This document shows, one piece after another, positions 29,439 through 59,600 of a stretch of 64,000 nucleotides of DNA. Source of the DNA: Escherichia phage RB32. The notes beneath the pieces are model-generated. The model saw only the letters and a list, made by a program, of their open reading frames with translations. It ran no database searches and was not told the DNA's origin. How positions within the stretch are numbered: position 1 is the stretch's first letter; every line of letters begins with the position of its first letter. Made by a program: the position numbers and the translations under genes. Location of the stretch: the sequence record NC_008515.1. One strand, 5' to 3'.

Positions 29439-30277
29439 TAGAATGCTCCTTGGAAAATATTATCACCACTAGTAGGTCTATTATACAAATACTCTATGCC
29501 ACCAGGTTTAATATAGTTCCATGTCTGAAACGGATGTGTCTGATATGGATGATATAGATGATTATAAGGATTAAATCCAGGAGTTCTCCAGGTAGTGTTC
29601 CAAGGAAAAGAATCGTTTTTAATCATCTTTTCAATTACATCTTTTATAGCTTTTTCACTATCAAAACTTTCTTTATTTTCCTTCGATGGAAAAAGCTTAT
29701 TCTCGACATCATTCCATGTATAAACTCGCTGAGCAGTTTTTGGAATACTGTCACGCTCCCCTCGAGCCATCCAATAAACAGGAACATTTAATATTTCACT
29801 CGCATGATCGCAGTGATGAGCGAGATCGTCAATATAACAAATTACGTTATATTTCTCTTTTGCCTTTTTGAACAACTCTTCTTTTGAAGAATCATGACCA
29901 CACATCATTACTTCTGAGAAGGCACCAGGAAAAAGAGCATTCAAATTAAATTGGCGATTCAACAGAGCGTCAATAGAATCACCTAATGCTGTAACAGCTA
30001 CAAAATTATAATCTTCTTTTAATTTGTTAATTACACACAGGGCATCTTTATACGGAGACAAGTAACGAATAAAATCTGAACGATTGTATTTTTCAATTAA
30101 CTTGACGCCAAGTTCTTCGTCACAATTAAAGAGTTTACCTGGAGAAATAAATTTCTCATCTTGGATCATTTTTAAAATATGTTCTAACGGAAGATTATAT
30201 TTCTGGGCAAAATAAGGAAGGCCTGATTGCCAGCTTAAACATACTCCATCAATATCAGTCAAAATAGTTGGCTTCAT
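29438..30277 (-). CDS. HAD-superfamily phosphatase-like protein (position of 30.2)
   Basis: 279 aa; motif I LTDIDGV, motif II FVAVTA, motif IV YIDD; aromatic-rich C-terminal tail. Confidence 0.65.
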   Translation of the reverse strand: MKPTILTDIDGVCLSWQSGLPYFAQKYNLPLEHILKMIQDEKFISPGKLFNCDEELGVKLIEKYNRSDFIRYLSPYKDALCVINKLKEDYNFVAVTALGDSIDALLNRQFNLNALFPGAFSEVMMCGHDSSKEELFKKAKEKYNVICYIDDLAHHCDHASEILNVPVYWMARGERDSIPKTAQRVYTWNDVENKLFPSKENKESFDSEKAIKDVIEKMIKNDSFPWNTTWRTPGFNPYNHLYHPYQTHPFQTWNYIKPGGIEYLYNRPTSGDNIFQGAF

Positions 30278-30738
30278 AGAGAGTCTCTTAATAGATTTAA
30301 CACATCAATAAATTCAGCTTCGGTTAGTATTGTATCATCTTTTGTTAGACCACTAGCCATGCTGTGCTTCAAAACTTTTCCTTTCGAGGCTTGTAATGCA
30401 TCACGAAAGCCCCTGTTTTGGATCGCTGCTTCAAAATATGCATTTGTGTATAATTCTTTCCACGCTGGAGAGTATCTTGAAAATGGAACTCCAAGCCAGA
30501 ACAACGTGCCACGGTCCTGAGCTCTAGCATAAGCTCGTCCAGCTTGTTGGGCGGCAAGCCCGGATAAACCAAATATACGACGTTGTTGTTCAACATTTTT
30601 CACTTTGCATCCTTGGAGGAATCCTTCAAGACCTCCGAATTGAATACCATCCATGACGAAAGGCCATTGGGCGAAATTGCTTAATGCACATGATGGCCAT
30701 CTAAAATTGCTTCTAATCTCTAACTCAGACATTTTCAA
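30274..30738 (-). CDS. NADAR/YbiA-like (DUF1768-type) protein (position of 30.3)
   Basis: 154 aa; LSNFAQWPFVMDG resembles the YbiA/NADAR signature FSNFAAWPIKVDG (from memory). Confidence 0.6.
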   Translation of the reverse strand: MKMSELEIRSNFRWPSCALSNFAQWPFVMDGIQFGGLEGFLQGCKVKNVEQQRRIFGLSGLAAQQAGRAYARAQDRGTLFWLGVPFSRYSPAWKELYTNAYFEAAIQNRGFRDALQASKGKVLKHSMASGLTKDDTILTEAEFIDVLNLLRDSL

Positions 30739-38689: not shown

Positions 38690-40277
<1,588 letters not shown>

Positions 40278-40304: not shown

Positions 40305-41483
40305 TTAAAAGTATTTTTTAAAACTCATCATAACTTTATCATCAACATCATTATCAATCTGTGCAACAAGGTAAGATGACAGTTCTACTTCTTGTGGCGC
40401 GGATTGAACATTATCAGAATTAAGATATTCACGAATCCAAGGATATGGGTGTTTAACCGGAGCATCGGTAATTGGGCATGGAAGACCACACTGTTTCATA
40501 CGAGATACAGTTAAGTAATCAATAAAGCTCCACATGCTATTTGTATTTAATCCAGGAACATCGCCATCTTTAAATAAATGAACTGCCCAATCTTTTTCTT
40601 GGCGGTTAACTTCCATGAAAATATCAACTGCTTCTTGTTCACACTCTTGAGCAATTTTAACCCATTCATCACCATCAGTACCGGATTGAAGTTGACGAAT
40701 AATATATTGGGTGCCTTTAAGGTGAAGCTGTTCATCGCGTGCAATGAACTTCATAATCTTGGCATTACCTTCCATGATTTCCATGTTCTTATGGAAGTTA
40801 AAGGTACATGCAAAAGATACATAAAAACGAATAGCTTCTAAGGCATTAATAACGTGTAAACAGAGGTAAAGAGACTTCATTAAAGCACATTTAGCTTCGG
40901 CTTCTTGTTTAATAGCTCGGTTTAAACGAAAATCAGCATCAGGAGATTCTTTAGCTAGTTCTACAAATTCTTTAGCGTTTTCCCATTCACGGGTTTTAAC
41001 CAAGACATCATCATAATAGCGACCGATAGATTCAGCACGTTTCATGATAGCTTCATCTAATACAATCTCATCAAATACCTTCGATGGATCAGTATAAAGA
41101 TTTCGCATGATATGAGTATATGAACGACTGTGAATAGTTTCACTAAAAGTCCATGTAGCAACCCACGTATCAAGGCTTGGGTCTGAAATTAATGACATAA
41201 GTACAGCAGACGGCGCACGACCCTGAATGCTATCCAAAAGTGATTGATACTTCAAGTTGTTAGTAAAAATATTTTGCTGATACTGAGGAAGCTTATTAAA
41301 CTGTGCAGCATCCATCATTAAGTTTACTTCTTCCGGGCGCCAGAAAAATGATAAGGACTTTTCTGTAAGTTCTTCAAATACTCGATGCCGTTGAATATCA
41401 TAACGCGCAATACCAAGACCTGAACCAAAAAACATAGGTTCTTTTAAAACATCAACTGGGTTTGTATTAAAAACTGTGCTCAT
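40305..41483 (-). CDS. nrdB: Ribonucleotide reductase small subunit NrdB (uninterrupted, no intron)
   Basis: Single 392-aa ORF with no interruption. Confidence 0.93.
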   Translation of the reverse strand: MSTVFNTNPVDVLKEPMFFGSGLGIARYDIQRHRVFEELTEKSLSFFWRPEEVNLMMDAAQFNKLPQYQQNIFTNNLKYQSLLDSIQGRAPSAVLMSLISDPSLDTWVATWTFSETIHSRSYTHIMRNLYTDPSKVFDEIVLDEAIMKRAESIGRYYDDVLVKTREWENAKEFVELAKESPDADFRLNRAIKQEAEAKCALMKSLYLCLHVINALEAIRFYVSFACTFNFHKNMEIMEGNAKIMKFIARDEQLHLKGTQYIIRQLQSGTDGDEWVKIAQECEQEAVDIFMEVNRQEKDWAVHLFKDGDVPGLNTNSMWSFIDYLTVSRMKQCGLPCPITDAPVKHPYPWIREYLNSDNVQSAPQEVELSSYLVAQIDNDVDDKVMMSFKKYF

Positions 41484-41534
41484 AAATTTTCCACTTAGTT
41501 AATAGTTGGTGACTCGTCCGTGAGTCAAATTATA

Positions 41535-43799
41535 TCATAATTTACAGGATGAACAATCTTCAGCTTTTGGAGTTTCTATTTCATAATCATCAGTACCAGA
41601 ACCATCACGGGTATTATGATAATAGAAATTTTTAATGCCATAATACCATCCGTATAGCATGTCATCAATCATTATTGACATTGGAACCTTTCCTTTTGGA
41701 AAAATCTGCGGGTCATAGTATGTATTCGCTGAAGCTGATTGACATACCCATTTCAGCATAATAGCTACCTGCGTAAGATAAGGTTTATTACCTTTCTTAG
41801 CTAATTTCCACGTATAATCATATAGGTCTATGTTATGCTCAATATTGGGCACGACTTGATTAAAGGAGCCCTCTTTTGATTCTTTAACAGAGACTGGTCC
41901 ACGTGGAGGCTCGATGCCGTTTGTACTGTTAGAAACTTGGGAAGATGACTCACATGGCATAAGTGCTGATAATGTGCTATTACGGATGCCAAAGAGCTTA
42001 AGGTCTTCCCGCAGCGCCGACCAGTCACAAACGTATTTTGGAGCTGCGATTTGGTCAATCTTTTTATTGTACCAGTCGATAGGTAGTTCGCCTCGAGACC
42101 AACGAGTGTCTGAATAATATTCGCAAGGTCCTTTTTCTTTGGCGAGCTTAATGGATGCTTTAATGAGTCCATACTGTAATCTCTCAAATAGTTCATGTGT
42201 TAAATCGTTAGCATCTTCATAAGAAGCAAAGTTACTTGCCAGCCAAGCTGCATAGTTAGTAACACCTACACCAAGGTTACGACGCTTTTTAGCTTTTTCT
42301 GCTTCAGGAACTGGATATCCTTGGTAATCCAAAAGATTATCAAGAGCACGAACTTGAACTTCTGCCAATTCATTAATTTTATCTTGGTCTTGCCAGTCAA
42401 AATTATCTAGTACGAATGCAGATAACGTGCACAAGCCAATTTCAGCATCAGGACTATTCACATCATTTGTTGGAATAGCAATTTCACAGCACAAGTTACT
42501 CTGACGAATAGGTGCCTTTTCACGAATAAACGGAGTATAGTTATTCGTATTATCAATGAACTGCACATAAATCCTTGCTGTTCCTGAACGTTCAGTCATG
42601 AGCAATTCAAATAGTTCACGGGCTTTAATACGCTTTTTGCGAATATTAGGGTCTTTTTCTGCTGCTTCGTATAATTCACGGAAACGGTCTTGGTCTTTAA
42701 AATAAGAATAATAAAGCTCGCCACCCATTTCATGCGGACTGAACAAAGTAATATAATCGTTCTTTCCGAATCGTTCCATCATCAAATCATTCAGTTGAAC
42801 ACCATAATCCATATGACGAATGCGGTTTTCTTCTACGCCTTTGTTATTTTTCAAAACGAGAAGATTTTCAACTTCCAAATGCCAAATAGGATAATAAGCA
42901 GTAGCAGCGCCGCCACGAATTCCACCCTGTGAGCATGATTTAACAGCAGTCTGAAAATGTTTCCAAAAAGGAATAACACCAGTATGGCGTACTTCACCCA
43001 TGCCAATCTTAGAACCTTCGGCACGAATCATACCAACGTTAATACCAATTCCAGCGCGTTTAGAGATATATTCAACAATTGAAGCGGAAGCCTTATTGAT
43101 AGACTTCAATGAATCTCCTGCCTCAATAACAACACATGAACTAAACTGTCGAGTTGGAGTACGACAACCAGCCATAATAGGAGTTGGCAATGAAATCTGT
43201 CGAGTAGATACTGCTTCATAAAAACGAATAACGTGTTTTAATCTATCAACAGGTTCATCTTGATGCAGTGCCATTCCAATAGTCATAAATGCAAACTGTG
43301 GAGTTTCATAAATTTGACCAGTGGTTTTATCTTTAACTAGATATTTTTCTTTTAATTGCATCGCCCCGGAATAAGTAAATTCCATATCCCGTTCGTGCTT
43401 AATTTTTGATTCTAAAAATGTAATTTCTTCTGCTGAATATTTTGACAATAATTCAGGGTCATATTTACCTTCATTTACACAATAAGAAATATGGTCAATA
43501 AATGAACGTGGTTCATACTGCCCATAAACATGCTTACGAAGAGCAAACATTAAACAACGCGCAGCTACATATTGATAATCAGGCTCTTCAACCGAAATAG
43601 AATTCGCAGCAGCCTTAATGACAATAGTCTGAATATCATCAGTTGTCATTCCATCACGGAGATAAGATTTAATATTTTCATATAATTCATAAGGATCTAC
43701 TGATGTTCCTTCAGCTGCCCAAGATAAAACTTTAATAATTTTTTGTGGGTCAAAGCTCTGAGAAACACCACTACTTTTGATAACATTAATTAATTGCAT
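41535..43799 (-). CDS. nrdA: Ribonucleotide reductase large subunit NrdA
   Basis: 754 aa, same as T4 NrdA; N-terminal ATP-cone. Confidence 0.95.
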   Translation of the reverse strand: MQLINVIKSSGVSQSFDPQKIIKVLSWAAEGTSVDPYELYENIKSYLRDGMTTDDIQTIVIKAAANSISVEEPDYQYVAARCLMFALRKHVYGQYEPRSFIDHISYCVNEGKYDPELLSKYSAEEITFLESKIKHERDMEFTYSGAMQLKEKYLVKDKTTGQIYETPQFAFMTIGMALHQDEPVDRLKHVIRFYEAVSTRQISLPTPIMAGCRTPTRQFSSCVVIEAGDSLKSINKASASIVEYISKRAGIGINVGMIRAEGSKIGMGEVRHTGVIPFWKHFQTAVKSCSQGGIRGGAATAYYPIWHLEVENLLVLKNNKGVEENRIRHMDYGVQLNDLMMERFGKNDYITLFSPHEMGGELYYSYFKDQDRFRELYEAAEKDPNIRKKRIKARELFELLMTERSGTARIYVQFIDNTNNYTPFIREKAPIRQSNLCCEIAIPTNDVNSPDAEIGLCTLSAFVLDNFDWQDQDKINELAEVQVRALDNLLDYQGYPVPEAEKAKKRRNLGVGVTNYAAWLASNFASYEDANDLTHELFERLQYGLIKASIKLAKEKGPCEYYSDTRWSRGELPIDWYNKKIDQIAAPKYVCDWSALREDLKLFGIRNSTLSALMPCESSSQVSNSTNGIEPPRGPVSVKESKEGSFNQVVPNIEHNIDLYDYTWKLAKKGNKPYLTQVAIMLKWVCQSASANTYYDPQIFPKGKVPMSIMIDDMLYGWYYGIKNFYYHNTRDGSGTDDYEIETPKAEDCSSCKL

Positions 43800-44116
43800 A
43801 AGTCCTCAACTTGAAAATCGTCTTTAAACAATCGGTTAACTATATGAGCTATTATATCACCATGACACGGCTTTGGTTTACATGTGCATCCTAGCCTCAT
43901 TCCACGTAAAGGCTCTAAATGTGCTTTAGTTATTTCTCCGGATTTAATTCGACGTATAAAATCTTTTTTGAATAATTCAATGGCAGCCTCCCGGCTGCCA
44001 GCATCTTTACCGACGTAATTCCCCCAAAATGTACCACGGTGAATATTAACATCAAAGTCGGATTTATATTTATTCACTACCCGGCATAGACGGCCCGCGC
44101 GGTTGTAGGTGTTCAT
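43790..44116 (-). CDS. DUF4326-like small protein (Cys/His motif [12 protein letters not shown])
   Basis: 108 aa; pattern matches my recollection of the DUF4326 family. Confidence 0.6.
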
Positions 44117-44345
44117 ATTGTTCTTCCGTTAAAACAGTAATATCGTAGTAACAGTCAGAAGAAGTTTTAACTGTAGAAATTTTATTATCAAAATACTCAC
44201 GAGTCATTTTATGAGTATAATATTTTTTGCCATAAATGATAATAGGCTGATTTGGTCCTGGAACTTCTAACTCACTTGGATTAGGAAGTGTAAAAAGAAC
44301 TACACCAGAAGTATCTTTAAATCGTAAAATCATATATCCTCGCAA
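44070..44345 (-). CDS. Hypothetical protein between td and nrdA
   Basis: 91 aa ORF; overlaps the next ORF by 47 nt in another frame. Confidence 0.5.
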
Positions 44346-44356
44346 TTAAATTAAAA

Positions 44357-45217
44357 TTACACCGCCATCTTTCCTTTAATAGAAGGGTGTGATTCATAGT
44401 TGTTAAGAACAAAATTATGCGGCTTTACGAATTGACTCAACCAAAATACCTGCGATTCTGTGTCCCATTCATCAAATTCATCTGGAAATTTTAATTGCAA
44501 TTCGCATAAATCCATAGGTTCACGACGTAAAATTTCTTTACATTGTTCTACGTGATTCATATAGATATGAGTATTACCACCGGAAAATATCAAATCTCCC
44601 GGAATAAGATTACACATCTTAGCTACAATATGAACTAACGTAGCATATGATGCAATGTTGAATGGCAAGCCCAAGAACACGTCAACACTTCTTTGATACC
44701 ACTGTAAATCCAAATAGCCATTACGCACATTAAATTGATAGAACATATGACAAGGCGGTAATGCCATATATTTAAGTTCAGCTGGATTCCACGCAGAAAC
44801 AATTTGTCGCCTATCATTCGGCAGTTTTTTAATACGATCAATAACTTCTACAATTTGGTCTACACCGCCAAAATCACGCCATTGTTTTCCATAAATTGGA
44901 CCAAGTTCACCGCTATGGTATCCTAAATCTTTTGCTTGATTTTCGTAATTTTCATCCCAGACTGTTTTGCCTTGAATTAATGAATCATGCTGAATTAATC
45001 GTAAATCATTGACATTTGTGCTTCCTGATAAAAACCATATTAACTCAGCAATGCAAGCTTTCCAGGCGAGCTTTTTAGTTGTTACTGCAGGAAAACCTTT
45101 GGTTAAATCCCAACGCAATTTAGTACCGAACAAAGCAATTGTTCCTGTGCCTGTTCGGTCATCAGTTTCGTAGCCATTTTCAAAAATGTCTTTAATTAAA
45201 TCTTGGTATTGTTTCAT
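44357..45217 (-). CDS. td: Thymidylate synthase (uninterrupted, no intron)
   Basis: Single 286-aa ORF, same as spliced T4 Td; active-site region LPPCH present. Confidence 0.95.
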   Translation of the reverse strand: MKQYQDLIKDIFENGYETDDRTGTGTIALFGTKLRWDLTKGFPAVTTKKLAWKACIAELIWFLSGSTNVNDLRLIQHDSLIQGKTVWDENYENQAKDLGYHSGELGPIYGKQWRDFGGVDQIVEVIDRIKKLPNDRRQIVSAWNPAELKYMALPPCHMFYQFNVRNGYLDLQWYQRSVDVFLGLPFNIASYATLVHIVAKMCNLIPGDLIFSGGNTHIYMNHVEQCKEILRREPMDLCELQLKFPDEFDEWDTESQVFWLSQFVKPHNFVLNNYESHPSIKGKMAV

Positions 45218-45262: not shown

Positions 45263-45610
45263 TCAATACGGTTTAGCATCAAATTTTCTCTCAATTTCAG
45301 GCGTGAAATATAATTCTTTACCGCGTTTGGAAAAGCGACCAATAATATGATAATTATTCTCATCAAACGTGATATTACCAATATCCATAGCTTTCAACCA
45401 AATATCGATATTTCTATCCAGCTTTATGTCAAAATTCCAATACGGAAAACTATTACCGAAAATACTGCAAGCGGATTCAGTGCAACAACTGCTATAAATC
45501 TTGTCTTTAGGAACTACTAATTGATAGACACCTTTAATAAACTGAGGACCCTGCCATTTTGGTTGTTTCGCGTCTTTTTCTAATAGAATAGGGTAATAAT
45601 TAAAGTTCAT
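45263..45610 (-). CDS. Hypothetical protein between frd and td, with no T4 counterpart at this position
   Basis: ORF track starts at GTG 45622; first ATG at 45610 gives 115 aa; no motif recognised. Confidence 0.55.
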   Translation of the reverse strand: MNFNYYPILLEKDAKQPKWQGPQFIKGVYQLVVPKDKIYSSCCTESACSIFGNSFPYWNFDIKLDRNIDIWLKAMDIGNITFDENNYHIIGRFSKRGKELYFTPEIERKFDAKPY

Positions 45611-45630
45611 ATTTTCCGGCACGCGTTATT

Positions 45631-46471
<841 letters not shown>

Positions 46472-46499
<28 letters not shown>

Positions 46500-56646: not shown

Positions 56647-59600
56647 ATGGCTACTTTAAAACAAATACAATTTAAAAGAAGCAAAATTGCAGGTCAACGT
56701 CCTGCAGCTTCAGTATTAGCCGAAGGTGAATTGGCTATAAACTTAAAAGATAAAACAATTTTCACAAAAGATGACTCAGGTAGTGTTATAGAATTAGGTT
56801 TAAAATATGGAGGAACTATAAATGGATCTTTAGAGGTTACAGAAAATATAACTGGAACTTTAATTGGAAATTCTAGTACAGCTACTAAATTGCAAACATC
56901 TAGGAAAATTAATGGTATATCTTTTGATGGATCAAAGGACATTACACTAACTCCATCTGATATAAATGTAAATAGTACAACATTTATAAAAAATAACGGC
57001 GAATTACCCGTTGATGCTAATTTAGATACATACGGGCCCATTGAAGAATATCTTGGTGTTTGGTCGAAATCTACTTCAACAAATGCGCAACCAGCAAATA
57101 AATTCCCAGAAGAAAATGCCGTAGGTGTACTAGAAGTATTTGTGGCCGGCCAATTTGCTGGCACTCAGCGTTATACTGTAAGATCTGGTAACGTCTATAT
57201 TCGTTCCTTATCTGCTAAATGGAATGGCGTCGATGGTCCATGGGGTGTGTGGCGTAATGTTCAAGCGTCAACTCGTCCACTTTCACAAACGATTGACCTT
57301 GATAGCTTGGGAGAATTAGAACATTGTGGCTTATGGAGAAACAGTTCAAGCGCAATCGCATCATTTGATCGCCATTATCCAGAAGAAGGATCAGCCGCAC
57401 AAGGATTTTTAGAAATATTTGAAGGTGGTTTATACACGAGAACGCAGCGATATACTACCCGCATGGGTATGGTTTATACTCGTTGTCTCGCTGCCGCATG
57501 GGATGCTAGTGCACCTAAGTGGGAGGAATGGAAGCAGGTTGGTCATGGCACACCAGCGACTTTCTATGACGGAGATCTGAATGATTTTAAAACTCCTGGG
57601 TTATATAATATTTTAGGCACTGATGCCGTTATTAACTGTCCTACCGGTGAAGGTTTGCCGACTGTTATTGTTGGTTTGCTGGAAGTTAAACAGCGTGCTT
57701 CTGGCGGTGCTATTTTCCAAAAATTTACTACTGCCGGAACGGGTGCAACTACTCGCGATCGTATTTTTGAGCGTGCATATACTGGTGGTGTGTGGGGTGC
57801 ATGGAACGAAGTATATACATCTTATTCTCTGCCAATTACTTTGGGTATGGGTGGTGTTAAAGCTCAATTAGCGGAGCTAGATTGGAACACATTTGATTTT
57901 GTTCCTGGCAGTATGTTTAGCGTTCCTTTGAACAAAATAAAGAACATGCCAGCAAATATGGATTGGGGTACGATTGACGGAAACTTGATCATGTTTTCCG
58001 TTGGACCAAGCGAGGGTGACGGAACAGGTCGAACAATTCAATTATGGCGTGGAAGAGCAACACAATCAGACTATCGTTATTTTGTTGTTCGTATTACTGG
58101 ACCTTTGACGAATAGAACTTGTACAGCTCGACGCGTTGTTCTTGAAGATGGTCGCCACACATGGACAGCTCAACAAGATTTTAATGGCGCAGTTAACTTC
58201 GGTGCTCCTACCAATTTTAACTCTACTGTTAATCTTAATAACACTACCACTTTTAAAACAGCAGTTAAATTCCGCTCATCTAATGCATTCCGTATGTATG
58301 CCGGAAAATTTGGTACAATTTTCCGTAATGATGGAGAGAGTCTTTATATTCTTTCCACCGACGAAGATGATCAAGATGGAAACTTTAATACAAATAGACC
58401 TTTCCGTTATGAATTAAGAACTGGTGATGTTACTTTGGGTGGTGCTGTTGGTGCTAACGTTTTAAAATTAAAACGTGATTCTCTCACCGCATTTTTTGGC
58501 GGTGATATTAACATGAAAGGCACGATGACTTTTGACGCCGGACGTTTAGGATCACGAGATTATTTTAAATTTAACCATTGGGGTGATAGCAATAACGCTC
58601 GTGATAACATCATCCAGTTAGAAGATAGCCAAGGCGCCCATTTTTCCACTGAACGTACTTTAGCGACAGGTGCAATTAAAACTCGTTTCTTTGGCGAAAC
58701 ATTCACTGATGGTACATTATACCTAAATCAGATGAATAATAGCTCTGAACGATTCTCTATCAACAATTGGGGAAATTCAGAAGTTGGTCGCGCGGCAGTA
58801 TTGGAAGTCGGCGATTCAAAAGGTTATCACTTCTATGCTGAACGCAGGACAGATAACAGTTTGATGTTTGATGTTGCTGGTTCTTTGATCGTGCATGGAC
58901 CTAGCGGAATAACCATCAAAAACTCAACTGGTGCACGACATATCTGGTTTAGAGATGATAGCGATGCAGAAAAGGCTGTTATCTGGGCTACAGATGAGGG
59001 TATTTTACATATTCGCAATAATCATGGGGGTTCATTTAGTCATCACTTCCAGGGTGCAATGATTAAAGCGGGAGAGCGTGTTCCATATAGTGGTGAATAC
59101 GCTCTTATCCGTGGTAATATTTCCGGTGGTGCATGGGTAGACTGGCGAGATCGTCCGGCTGGATTGTTGGTAGACTGTCAGGACTCACGAAATCAAGCAT
59201 ATAGCATTTGGAAAGCTACTCATTGGGGCGAACAGCACCTTGCGGCGATGGGTGTTCATGCTGGCGGTGGTAATCCTCAGGTTGTATTGCATGTGGGTGG
59301 GAGTGATTATGCATTTGCATTTAACGGTGATTTTACTGCTGGTGCTGCTGTATATTGTAACGACGTTTATATTCGTTCTGACCGTCGTCTGAAAATTAAT
59401 GTTGAAGACTACGAAGAGAATGCGGTGGATAAGGTAAATAAACTCAAAGTTAAAACCTATGATAAAGTTAAATCTCTTTCTGACCGCGAAGTTATCGGCC
59501 ATGAGATTGGTATTATCGCACAGGATTTGCAAGAAGTATTACCGGAAGCTGTTAGCACTTCTAGTGTCGGATCTCAGGATAACCCAGAAGAAATTTTAAC

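Follow-up and report, generated by a model that had tools for sequence, protein, structure and literature searches.

The gene nrdA.1, on the minus strand of a 64,000-nucleotide stretch of Escherichia phage RB32 (NC_008515.1; this whole stretch is called the window below), encodes a true member of the DUF4326 family, and we tentatively favour the reading that its product is a small enzyme, dependent on cysteine but not on metal, that belongs to the RapZ-C/DUF488/DUF4326 branch of the rhodanese-phosphatase-like proteins. The gene had been picked out by a sequence-only reading of the window, and the 108-residue open reading frame (ORF) was indeed present in the ORF list, on the minus strand, with both quoted peptides in its translation. 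The 2.3-kb stretch around nrdA.1 was 100% identical to Enterobacteria phage RB33 (KM607001.1), in whose record the ORF is annotated as RB33_227, “hypothetical protein, nrdA.1”, and is flanked by nrdA on the one hand and by nrdA.2, td, and frd on the other. Its T4 counterpart is T4p235, which has the same length (108 aa), the same position, and both overlaps identical (PMC11879866 supplement). Since gene and family are catalogued and an in silico prediction has been published, nrdA.1 was already known, and the result of the genome scan is a re-identification, not a discovery. The features on which the argument rests are the following.

43790..44116, minus strand: nrdA.1 coding sequence, DUF4326 domain protein of 108 aa, ATG-started (ORF list)
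43856..43894, minus strand: family signature, codons L75-D87, covering strand end, loop, and helix start (sequence and conservation of 93-100%)
44015..44083, minus strand: N-terminal conserved block, codons R12-Y34, VVN...D-V-x-I-x-R-G-x-x-W-G-N-P/Y (conservation)

Family membership, conservation, and predicted fold

The assignment to DUF4326 that the sequence-only reading had made was borne out by a full-length match to the Pfam profile PF14216 (E 5.5e-22; 78.7 bits at a gathering cut-off of 25 bits; profile positions 1-81 of 82). The protein also matched PHROG 464, a family of unknown function, with E 1.4e-48, and searches of NCBIfam and PADLOC with the nrdA.1 protein gave no match. Close homologues of nrdA.1 numbered 72, and a profile search of 1.84 billion cluster representatives returned 10,507 for DUF4326 (50% clustering) at E<=1e-3. 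By tblastn, homologues were found in 1,974 of 50,697 phage records, which is about 4% of sequenced phages. The family ranges over phages, bacteria, archaeal viruses (haloarchaeal), giant viruses, and bacterial mobile elements, so the earlier description as a conserved phage protein was right about conservation but too narrow about distribution.

Family-wide conservation was scored on 154 diverse domains taken from the profile search. In this set C77 and C84 were conserved in 100%, C79, P81, H85, and N33 in 99%, R27 in 96%, G86 in 94%, and D87 in 93%, with G86, G32, D87, D22, and N15 all lying within 91-94% and V14, N15, D22, I25, R27, G32, and N33 within 90-99%. Thus the C-x-C...C-H-G-D block that had been described as conserved is conserved in 93-100% of the diverse domains, and it was invariant in the close homologues. 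The residues invariant in 28 of these were C11, R27, G28, G32, N33, R74, G76, C77, C79, P81, C84, H85, G86, and D87. C11 is poorly kept family-wide, being Thr in most DUF4326 members, so the conserved Cys/His set consists of C-x-C-x-P-x2-C-H-G-D only. The block does not end the protein as had been stated; it is real, but it occupies residues 70-93 and 15 more residues follow. The ORF holds all positions of L-G-C-x-C-x-P-x2-C-H-G-D and of V-V-N ... D-V-x-I-x-R-G ... W-G-N, and position 34 is Tyr in RB33 versus Pro in about 90% of the family. The signature motif was also invariant in 120 genome loci, which had themselves been retrieved by the DNA pattern of the motif. Near-invariant polar residues span the whole domain (N15, D22, R27, N33, R42, C77, C79, C84, H85, and D87), and the conservation of the motif over 10,507 cluster representatives indicates, as judged from sequence comparison, selection on function. 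Some DUF4326 ORFs are named “ribonucleotide reductase NrdA-like” in phrog_24867 and in some phage records; this looks like propagation of the name “NrdA.1”, not NrdA homology.

An AlphaFold2 model built from the alignment reached a predicted local distance difference test score of 87.6 and a predicted template modelling score of 0.80, while the four other models reached 70-75. The predicted strands are at residues 12-15 and 74-77, with a short bridge at 23-24, and the predicted helices are at 36-39, 42-59, 64-70, 85-96, and 103-107. Taken as topology only, this secondary structure makes the invariant loop 78-84 the link between strand end C77 and helix start H85. Foldseek of the model against the Protein Data Bank (PDB) gave no match at E<=0.001, and the BFVD matches were DUF4326 proteins only, from phages, haloarchaeal viruses, pandoraviruses, pithoviruses, and marseilleviruses. 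PDB sequence searches with the protein and with a 60-sequence profile returned noise only; the same was true of DUF488, for which no solved structure was found.

DUF488 was nevertheless the family that profile comparison by hhalign brought closest to DUF4326, with a weak match (P 0.0014, 58 columns, probability 17.7%). In this alignment C77, P81, C84, and H85 fall on the C, P, C, and H of C-x2-E-x2-P-x2-C-H-R. As controls, NADAR gave P 0.13 (6 columns), Macro 0.2, and SLOG 0.62. E. coli RapZ carries IGCTGGKHRSV, which is a C-x5-R-S loop, and a local hhalign match places LGCT of nrdA.1 on IGCT of RapZ. Profile homology to RapZ-C was tried and could not be demonstrated (hhalign P 0.28).

Fusion partners, operons, and ribonucleotide reductase linkage

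Among 46 long representatives, the domains fused to DUF4326 were mSLOG (7), YAcAr-SLOG (6), NADAR (5), DprA-like SLOG (4), Macro (1), and TIR (1), and further partners were Pol A, RNase H, and single-subunit RNA polymerase. A degenerate DNA pattern of the motif was used to retrieve 120 bacterial and archaeal loci, all 120 of which proved to be true DUF4326, and mSLOG-DUF4326 fusions were present in 30 of them. A bacterial operon of three genes, encoding DuOB (dual OB fold, about 220 aa), then DUF488 (about 146 aa), then the mSLOG-DUF4326 fusion (about 200 aa), occurs in 18-20 genomes. An example is L009:6463-6930(-) with L009:5858-6463(-), and there are about 18 further loci (L016, L018, L037, L045, L047, and L054 among them, as well as L057, L060, L068, L078, and L083). 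At two Pseudomonas loci of this operon, an AAA/SMC-like ATPase is encoded on the opposite strand.

A second arrangement, found in 16 loci, pairs a 124-aa DUF4326 gene with a 318-aa YAcAr-SLOG gene behind it, and ParB-like and SSB genes lie close by. The chromosome of a metagenome-assembled genome (MAG), OZ241875.1 (4.39 Mb), holds at least 6 paralogous DUF4326 modules of 3-5 kb with about 90% DNA identity (L049, L051, L053, L069, L071, and L076), in which DUF4326 precedes YAcAr-SLOG wherever the stretch extends far enough; these modules look like multiple related mobile elements. A “leading region” context in conjugative elements was considered for the actinobacterial-type loci and was not established, the genes seen there being ParB-like, SSB, helix-turn-helix, and DUF genes only. 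Amoeba viruses encode homologues of ORF83, a LOG-like anti-Avs protein, that carry DUF4326 at the C-terminal end. These fusions and the dispensability of nrdA.1 in T4 are the indirect links to phage anti-defence proteins. The fixed partners SLOG, NADAR, Macro, TIR, and DUF488 place DUF4326 in the arena of nicotinamide adenine dinucleotide (NAD)/ADP-ribose and nucleotide signals.

For viruses, the motif DNA pattern gave 120 IMG/VR loci, from which 116 ORFs were recovered, and all 116 were true DUF4326. The large subunit of ribonucleotide reductase (RNR) was the commonest neighbour family in this sample, lying within 3 genes at 7 loci (L144, L145, L169, and L225 are examples), and at 6 of the 7 the DUF4326 gene was upstream on the same strand. 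In L144 the RNR downstream of DUF4326 has a class II-type RNR_Alpha domain. By a rough calculation that ignores kinship, about 2 RNR co-occurrences would be expected by chance among 116 genes. The remaining neighbours in these viral contigs were a diverse set of genes for replication, nucleotide metabolism, and RNA repair. The RNR link recurs in annotated phages, in three arrangements. In T4-type phages the DUF4326 gene precedes class Ia nrdA and overlaps it by 10 nt, in Klebsiella phage KLB15 (Slopekvirus; L123:3977-4297) it overlaps the end of nrdB, and in the jumbo phage PBECO4 (L122:3983-4315) it stands between nrdD and nrdG of class III and overlaps the nrdG start. In phages Det7 and AS-zj the gene is away from RNR.

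RB33 itself encodes the usual DUF4326 partners as separate genes, namely a Macro protein, a NADAR-like protein, the Nudix protein NudE, and the ADP-ribosyltransferases ModA and ModB; no DUF488 gene was found in RB33. The NADAR-like and Macro genes are located as follows.

30274-30732, minus strand: gp30.3 (Pfam Phage_30_3), NADAR-like (match to a small NADAR model, E 3e-4)
RB33 58099-58566 (L248:8102-8566), outside the window: tk.4, Macro domain (Pfam E 2.2e-6)

As to the phenotype, nrdA.1 is dispensable in T4, since its score in the genome-wide dCas13d knockdown was -0.116, “Not Fit”, which means no fitness defect, and nrdA, td, and frd were scored “Not Fit” likewise (PMC11879866 supplement). 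The HIDEN-SEQ preprint on T4 makes no mention of nrdA.1.

Proposed activity and its alternatives

Burroughs and Aravind reportedly defined a RapZ-C-DUF488-DUF4326 clade in 2023. The Aravind lab counts DUF4326 as part of the rhodanese-phosphatase superfamily and predicts that the domain processes the terminal phosphates that ADP-ribose derivatives, or their breakdown products, carry on the ribose (PMC9503650, PMC7824862). Our sequence-level findings agree with the prediction of a rhodanese-phosphatase-like enzyme acting on ribose-linked phosphates. The invariant loop C77-x-C79-x-P81-x2-C84-H85-G86-D87 is predicted to lead from a beta strand into the N-terminus of a helix, and this strand-loop-helix site is where Cys phosphatases and rhodaneses carry the catalytic Cys loop, so the loop is proposed to be catalytic; for nrdA.1 this step from topology to chemistry is one that we infer from the model. 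A thiolate, most likely that of C77 at the strand end or that of C79, would attack a ribose phosphate ester with acid-base help from H85 and D87, and phosphate and sugar would be held by R27, R42, and N33. The substrates may be small molecules derived from nucleotides or ADP-ribose, or nucleic-acid ends, and may include the products released by SLOG/LOG phosphoribohydrolases and by Macro and NADAR domains, to which the activity would be complementary. The gene would be expressed from a prereplicative message shared with frd, td, and nrdA and, being dispensable in the laboratory, would probably supply an accessory function during infection, clearing up or disarming phospho-ribosyl compounds in the service of counter-defence or of nucleotide-pool hygiene.

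Several points weigh against this cysteine-dependent enzyme. Three Cys and one His within nine residues are equally compatible with a metal site. The canonical C-x5-R is missing, as the loop is two residues longer and has His in the place of Arg, and no Arg stands 6 residues after any Cys in C77-T-C79-K-P-K-P-C84-H85-G-D. The link to DUF488 is weak (hhalign probability 17.7%), and a 100-sequence RapZ-C profile compared with DUF4326 was not significant (hhalign P 0.28, 4 columns). The strongest phage-specific context of DUF4326 is ribonucleotide reductase, not ADP-ribose genes, and a SLOG gene was not found in RB33. Literature searches for PF14216, nrdA.1, and rhodanese-phosphatase turned up no experimental work, biochemical or genetic, on DUF4326 proteins. 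The label “uncharacterised” that had been given to the family therefore holds for bench work but overlooks the published in silico prediction (PMC9503650, PMC7824862).

The tight placement in RNR operons, in three arrangements and with three RNR classes, could mean that NrdA.1 is an accessory of deoxynucleotide synthesis, working with RNR or with the T4 deoxynucleoside triphosphate (dNTP) synthetase complex and separate from ADP-ribose or immune-signal roles. It could then assist in thiol or redox chemistry, be a subunit for maturation or regulation, or dephosphorylate the substrates or products of RNR. The rank of the RNR large subunit as top neighbour, mostly downstream on the same strand, speaks for such a role, and the conserved Cys cluster would suit redox chemistry. 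However, the linkage was seen in about 6% of the sampled viral loci, several of which are related T4-type phages (kinship ignored), and nucleotide-metabolism genes cluster in phage early modules anyway. No RNR was among the recurrent neighbour families of the 120 bacterial loci, the gene is not linked to RNR in Det7 and AS-zj, and the fusion partners are SLOG, NADAR, and Macro but never RNR. Dedicated reductants, nrdC and nrdH, are already present in T4, and class III RNR is independent of a thiol reductant. We regard an RNR accessory as unlikely. The metal site is the basis of another view, in which C77, C79, C84, and H85 bind structural Zn and the protein is a non-catalytic module that acts by binding nucleic acid, sugar phosphate, or protein, as RapZ-C does. 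This would account for four invariant ligand-type residues within nine residues, and DUF488 has a Glu, a possible metal ligand, near the position of the second Cys. The best structural match is RapZ, generally known as a binding domain, and DUF4326 is fused to or adjoins the DNA-binding and replication proteins SSB, ParB, DuOB, Pol A, and RNase H. But C84 and H85 follow each other directly, an awkward arrangement for coordinating one ion jointly; the invariant N15, D22, R27, N33, R42, and D87 lie far from the cluster and would fit an active or ligand site better than a zinc knuckle; and no zinc-finger family was among the Pfam matches. A non-catalytic metal-binding module seems rather improbable.

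The frequent DUF4326-NADAR fusions also raise the idea of a NADAR-like N-glycosidase that removes ADP-ribose from bases or small molecules. We consider this very unlikely, because the profile comparison was at noise level (P 0.13, 6 columns) and a domain fused to NADAR would be expected to complement its activity and not to duplicate it; NADAR catalysis is not known to use a Cys cluster. It would be more surprising still if nrdA.1 were a selfish or mobile ORF of no benefit to the phage, like a free-standing homing-endonuclease gene targeting RNR genes. Introns and free-standing endonuclease genes are known to cluster at the RNR genes of T4-type phages (in T4 itself, mobE separates nrdA from nrdB, and td harbours I-TevI), the position of DUF4326 around RNR genes differs between phages, and paralogous DUF4326 modules occupy at least 6 sites in the one MAG. 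Against this, no nuclease motif or family match was found in Pfam, PHROG, NCBIfam, or PADLOC, about 570 T4-type records hold the gene with at least 80% identity, a fixed position, and conserved overlaps, and an active-site-like motif is conserved over the 10,507 cluster representatives.

The preferred reading, that of a cysteine-dependent enzyme, can be drawn more sharply, though in this full form we hold it to be doubtful. The protein would then be a new enzyme with a C-x-C-x4-C-H-G-D loop, coupled in phages to class I, II, and III RNR operons, which removes a phosphate or a phosphoribosyl/ADP-ribosyl-type group from nucleotides or DNA ends and so shields the dNTP supply or the genome from host nucleotide- and NAD-based immunity. 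If that were true, T4 nrdA.1 would be the first tractable model for a family of more than 10,000 sequence clusters. DUF4326 is large and has neither a solved structure nor an assay, and the NAD/ADP-ribose and nucleotide-signal arena is now central to the conflict between phages and bacteria. Because T4 itself carries a copy, deletion mutants, plating on defence panels, and biochemistry are straightforward, and identification of a DUF4326 substrate could bring to light an enzymatic step that is new to counter-defence or nucleotide metabolism. What gives the case its value is that a huge uncharacterised family is represented in the most tractable of phage systems and that its genes are repeatedly, and so far inexplicably, attached to RNR operons.

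Gene layout and comparison with known families

The statement that the ORF adjoins nrdA was correct, and the two genes in fact overlap by 10 nt. The neighbouring genes and the signals at both ends of nrdA.1 are listed here.

41535..43799, minus strand: nrdA, class Ia ribonucleotide reductase large subunit, downstream neighbour (ORF list and annotation)
43790..43807, minus strand: nrdA.1/nrdA junction, with the nrdA Shine-Dalgarno GAGGA at 43803-43807 and the nrdA ATG at 43797-43799 (sequence)
44070..44333, minus strand: nrdA.2, DUF5496 protein, upstream neighbour (Pfam PF17600 E 2.9e-57; annotation)
44070..44116, minus strand: overlap of nrdA.2 end and nrdA.1 start, 47 nt, out of frame (ORF list and annotation)
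44123..44127, minus strand: GGAAG, candidate Shine-Dalgarno-like site 6 nt 5' of the nrdA.1 ATG (putative, from sequence)
39867-40277, minus strand: denA (endonuclease II), a GIY-YIG ORF downstream of nrdB and an ordinary T4 gene (Pfam E 4.8e-6; PHROG 1111)
45263-45622, minus strand: RB33_230, small ORF between td and frd with no T4 name, Cys-rich (..SSCCTESACS..)
46215-46499, minus strand: RB33_232, small ORF just past frd with no T4 name, Cys-rich (..CGECQRVC..)

The stop of nrdA.1 lies 10 nt inside nrdA, and the last nrdA.1 codons (..V-E-D-L-C-N-stop) contain both the nrdA Shine-Dalgarno GAGGA and the nrdA ATG. This arrangement suggests that nrdA.1 and nrdA are co-transcribed, probably with translational coupling. 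The C-terminal tail “(I/V)EDL” is conserved in T4-type homologues and missing from the wider DUF4326 family, so it may be retained for the nrdA ribosome-binding site and not for protein function. At the other end, T4 has an equal 47-nt overlap, with nrdA.2 at 142951-143214 and nrdA.1 at 142671-142997 (PMC11879866 supplement). The residues encoded in this overlap differ between RB33 and T4, for which the guide sequences imply the start MTNYSSVGRL, and the first 10 or so residues of nrdA.1 are variable even within T4-type phages. The overlap (44070-44116) is also G+C-rich beyond the genome norm. A scan between td and nrdA for sigma-70-like promoters, terminators, and MotA boxes gave none that was convincing.

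In about 570 T4-type records, nrdA.1 was present with at least 80% identity, in a fixed position and with conserved overlaps. By tblastn, nrdA.2 (DUF5496) was found in 673 phage records, all of them T4-type. An obligate partnership of nrdA.2 with DUF4326 was rejected, because DUF5496 is confined to these 673 records whereas DUF4326 occurs in about 2,000. In the region 40305-45217 of the window, RB33 is without the mobile elements of T4: td is a continuous ORF of 286 codons with no intron and no I-TevI, the gap between nrdB and nrdA is 51 nt and thus leaves no mobE, and nrdB is a single ORF of 392 codons.

Among known systems, DUF488 (PF04343, with the DUF488-N3a subclade) gave DUF4326 its best, though weak, profile-profile match and has a C-terminal strand-loop-helix with C, P, C, and H in register, and it is encoded directly upstream of the mSLOG-DUF4326 fusions in the conserved bacterial operon. 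It differs in being longer (about 145 aa versus about 90 for DUF4326) and in its loop, which has one residue more and carries Glu close to where DUF4326 has its second Cys and Arg behind the His. RapZ-C (PF22740) keeps the classical C-x5-R-S loop, but it has no counterpart of the H-G-D or of the second and third Cys, and a P-loop NTPase is fused to it. The RapZ-C of E. coli is the GlmZ adaptor, a glucosamine-6-phosphate sensor and a binder of small RNA, with no reported enzyme activity. The Cys phosphatases and rhodaneses (PTP, DSP, PTEN, Cdc25) have the C-x5-R that nrdA.1 is without, and their similarity scores were not significant; the nrdA.1 domain is also far smaller and has three short predicted strands only. 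NADAR, Macro, and SLOG/LOG are frequent fusion and operon partners of DUF4326 and belong to the same arena of viruses, mobile elements, and conflict systems, but by profile comparison they are non-homologous to it, and their chemistries for breaking glycosidic or ester bonds in ADP-ribose and nucleotides are different. With T4 NrdA.1, PF14216, and PHROG 464 the signature motif is identical, and nothing essential is different in RB33.

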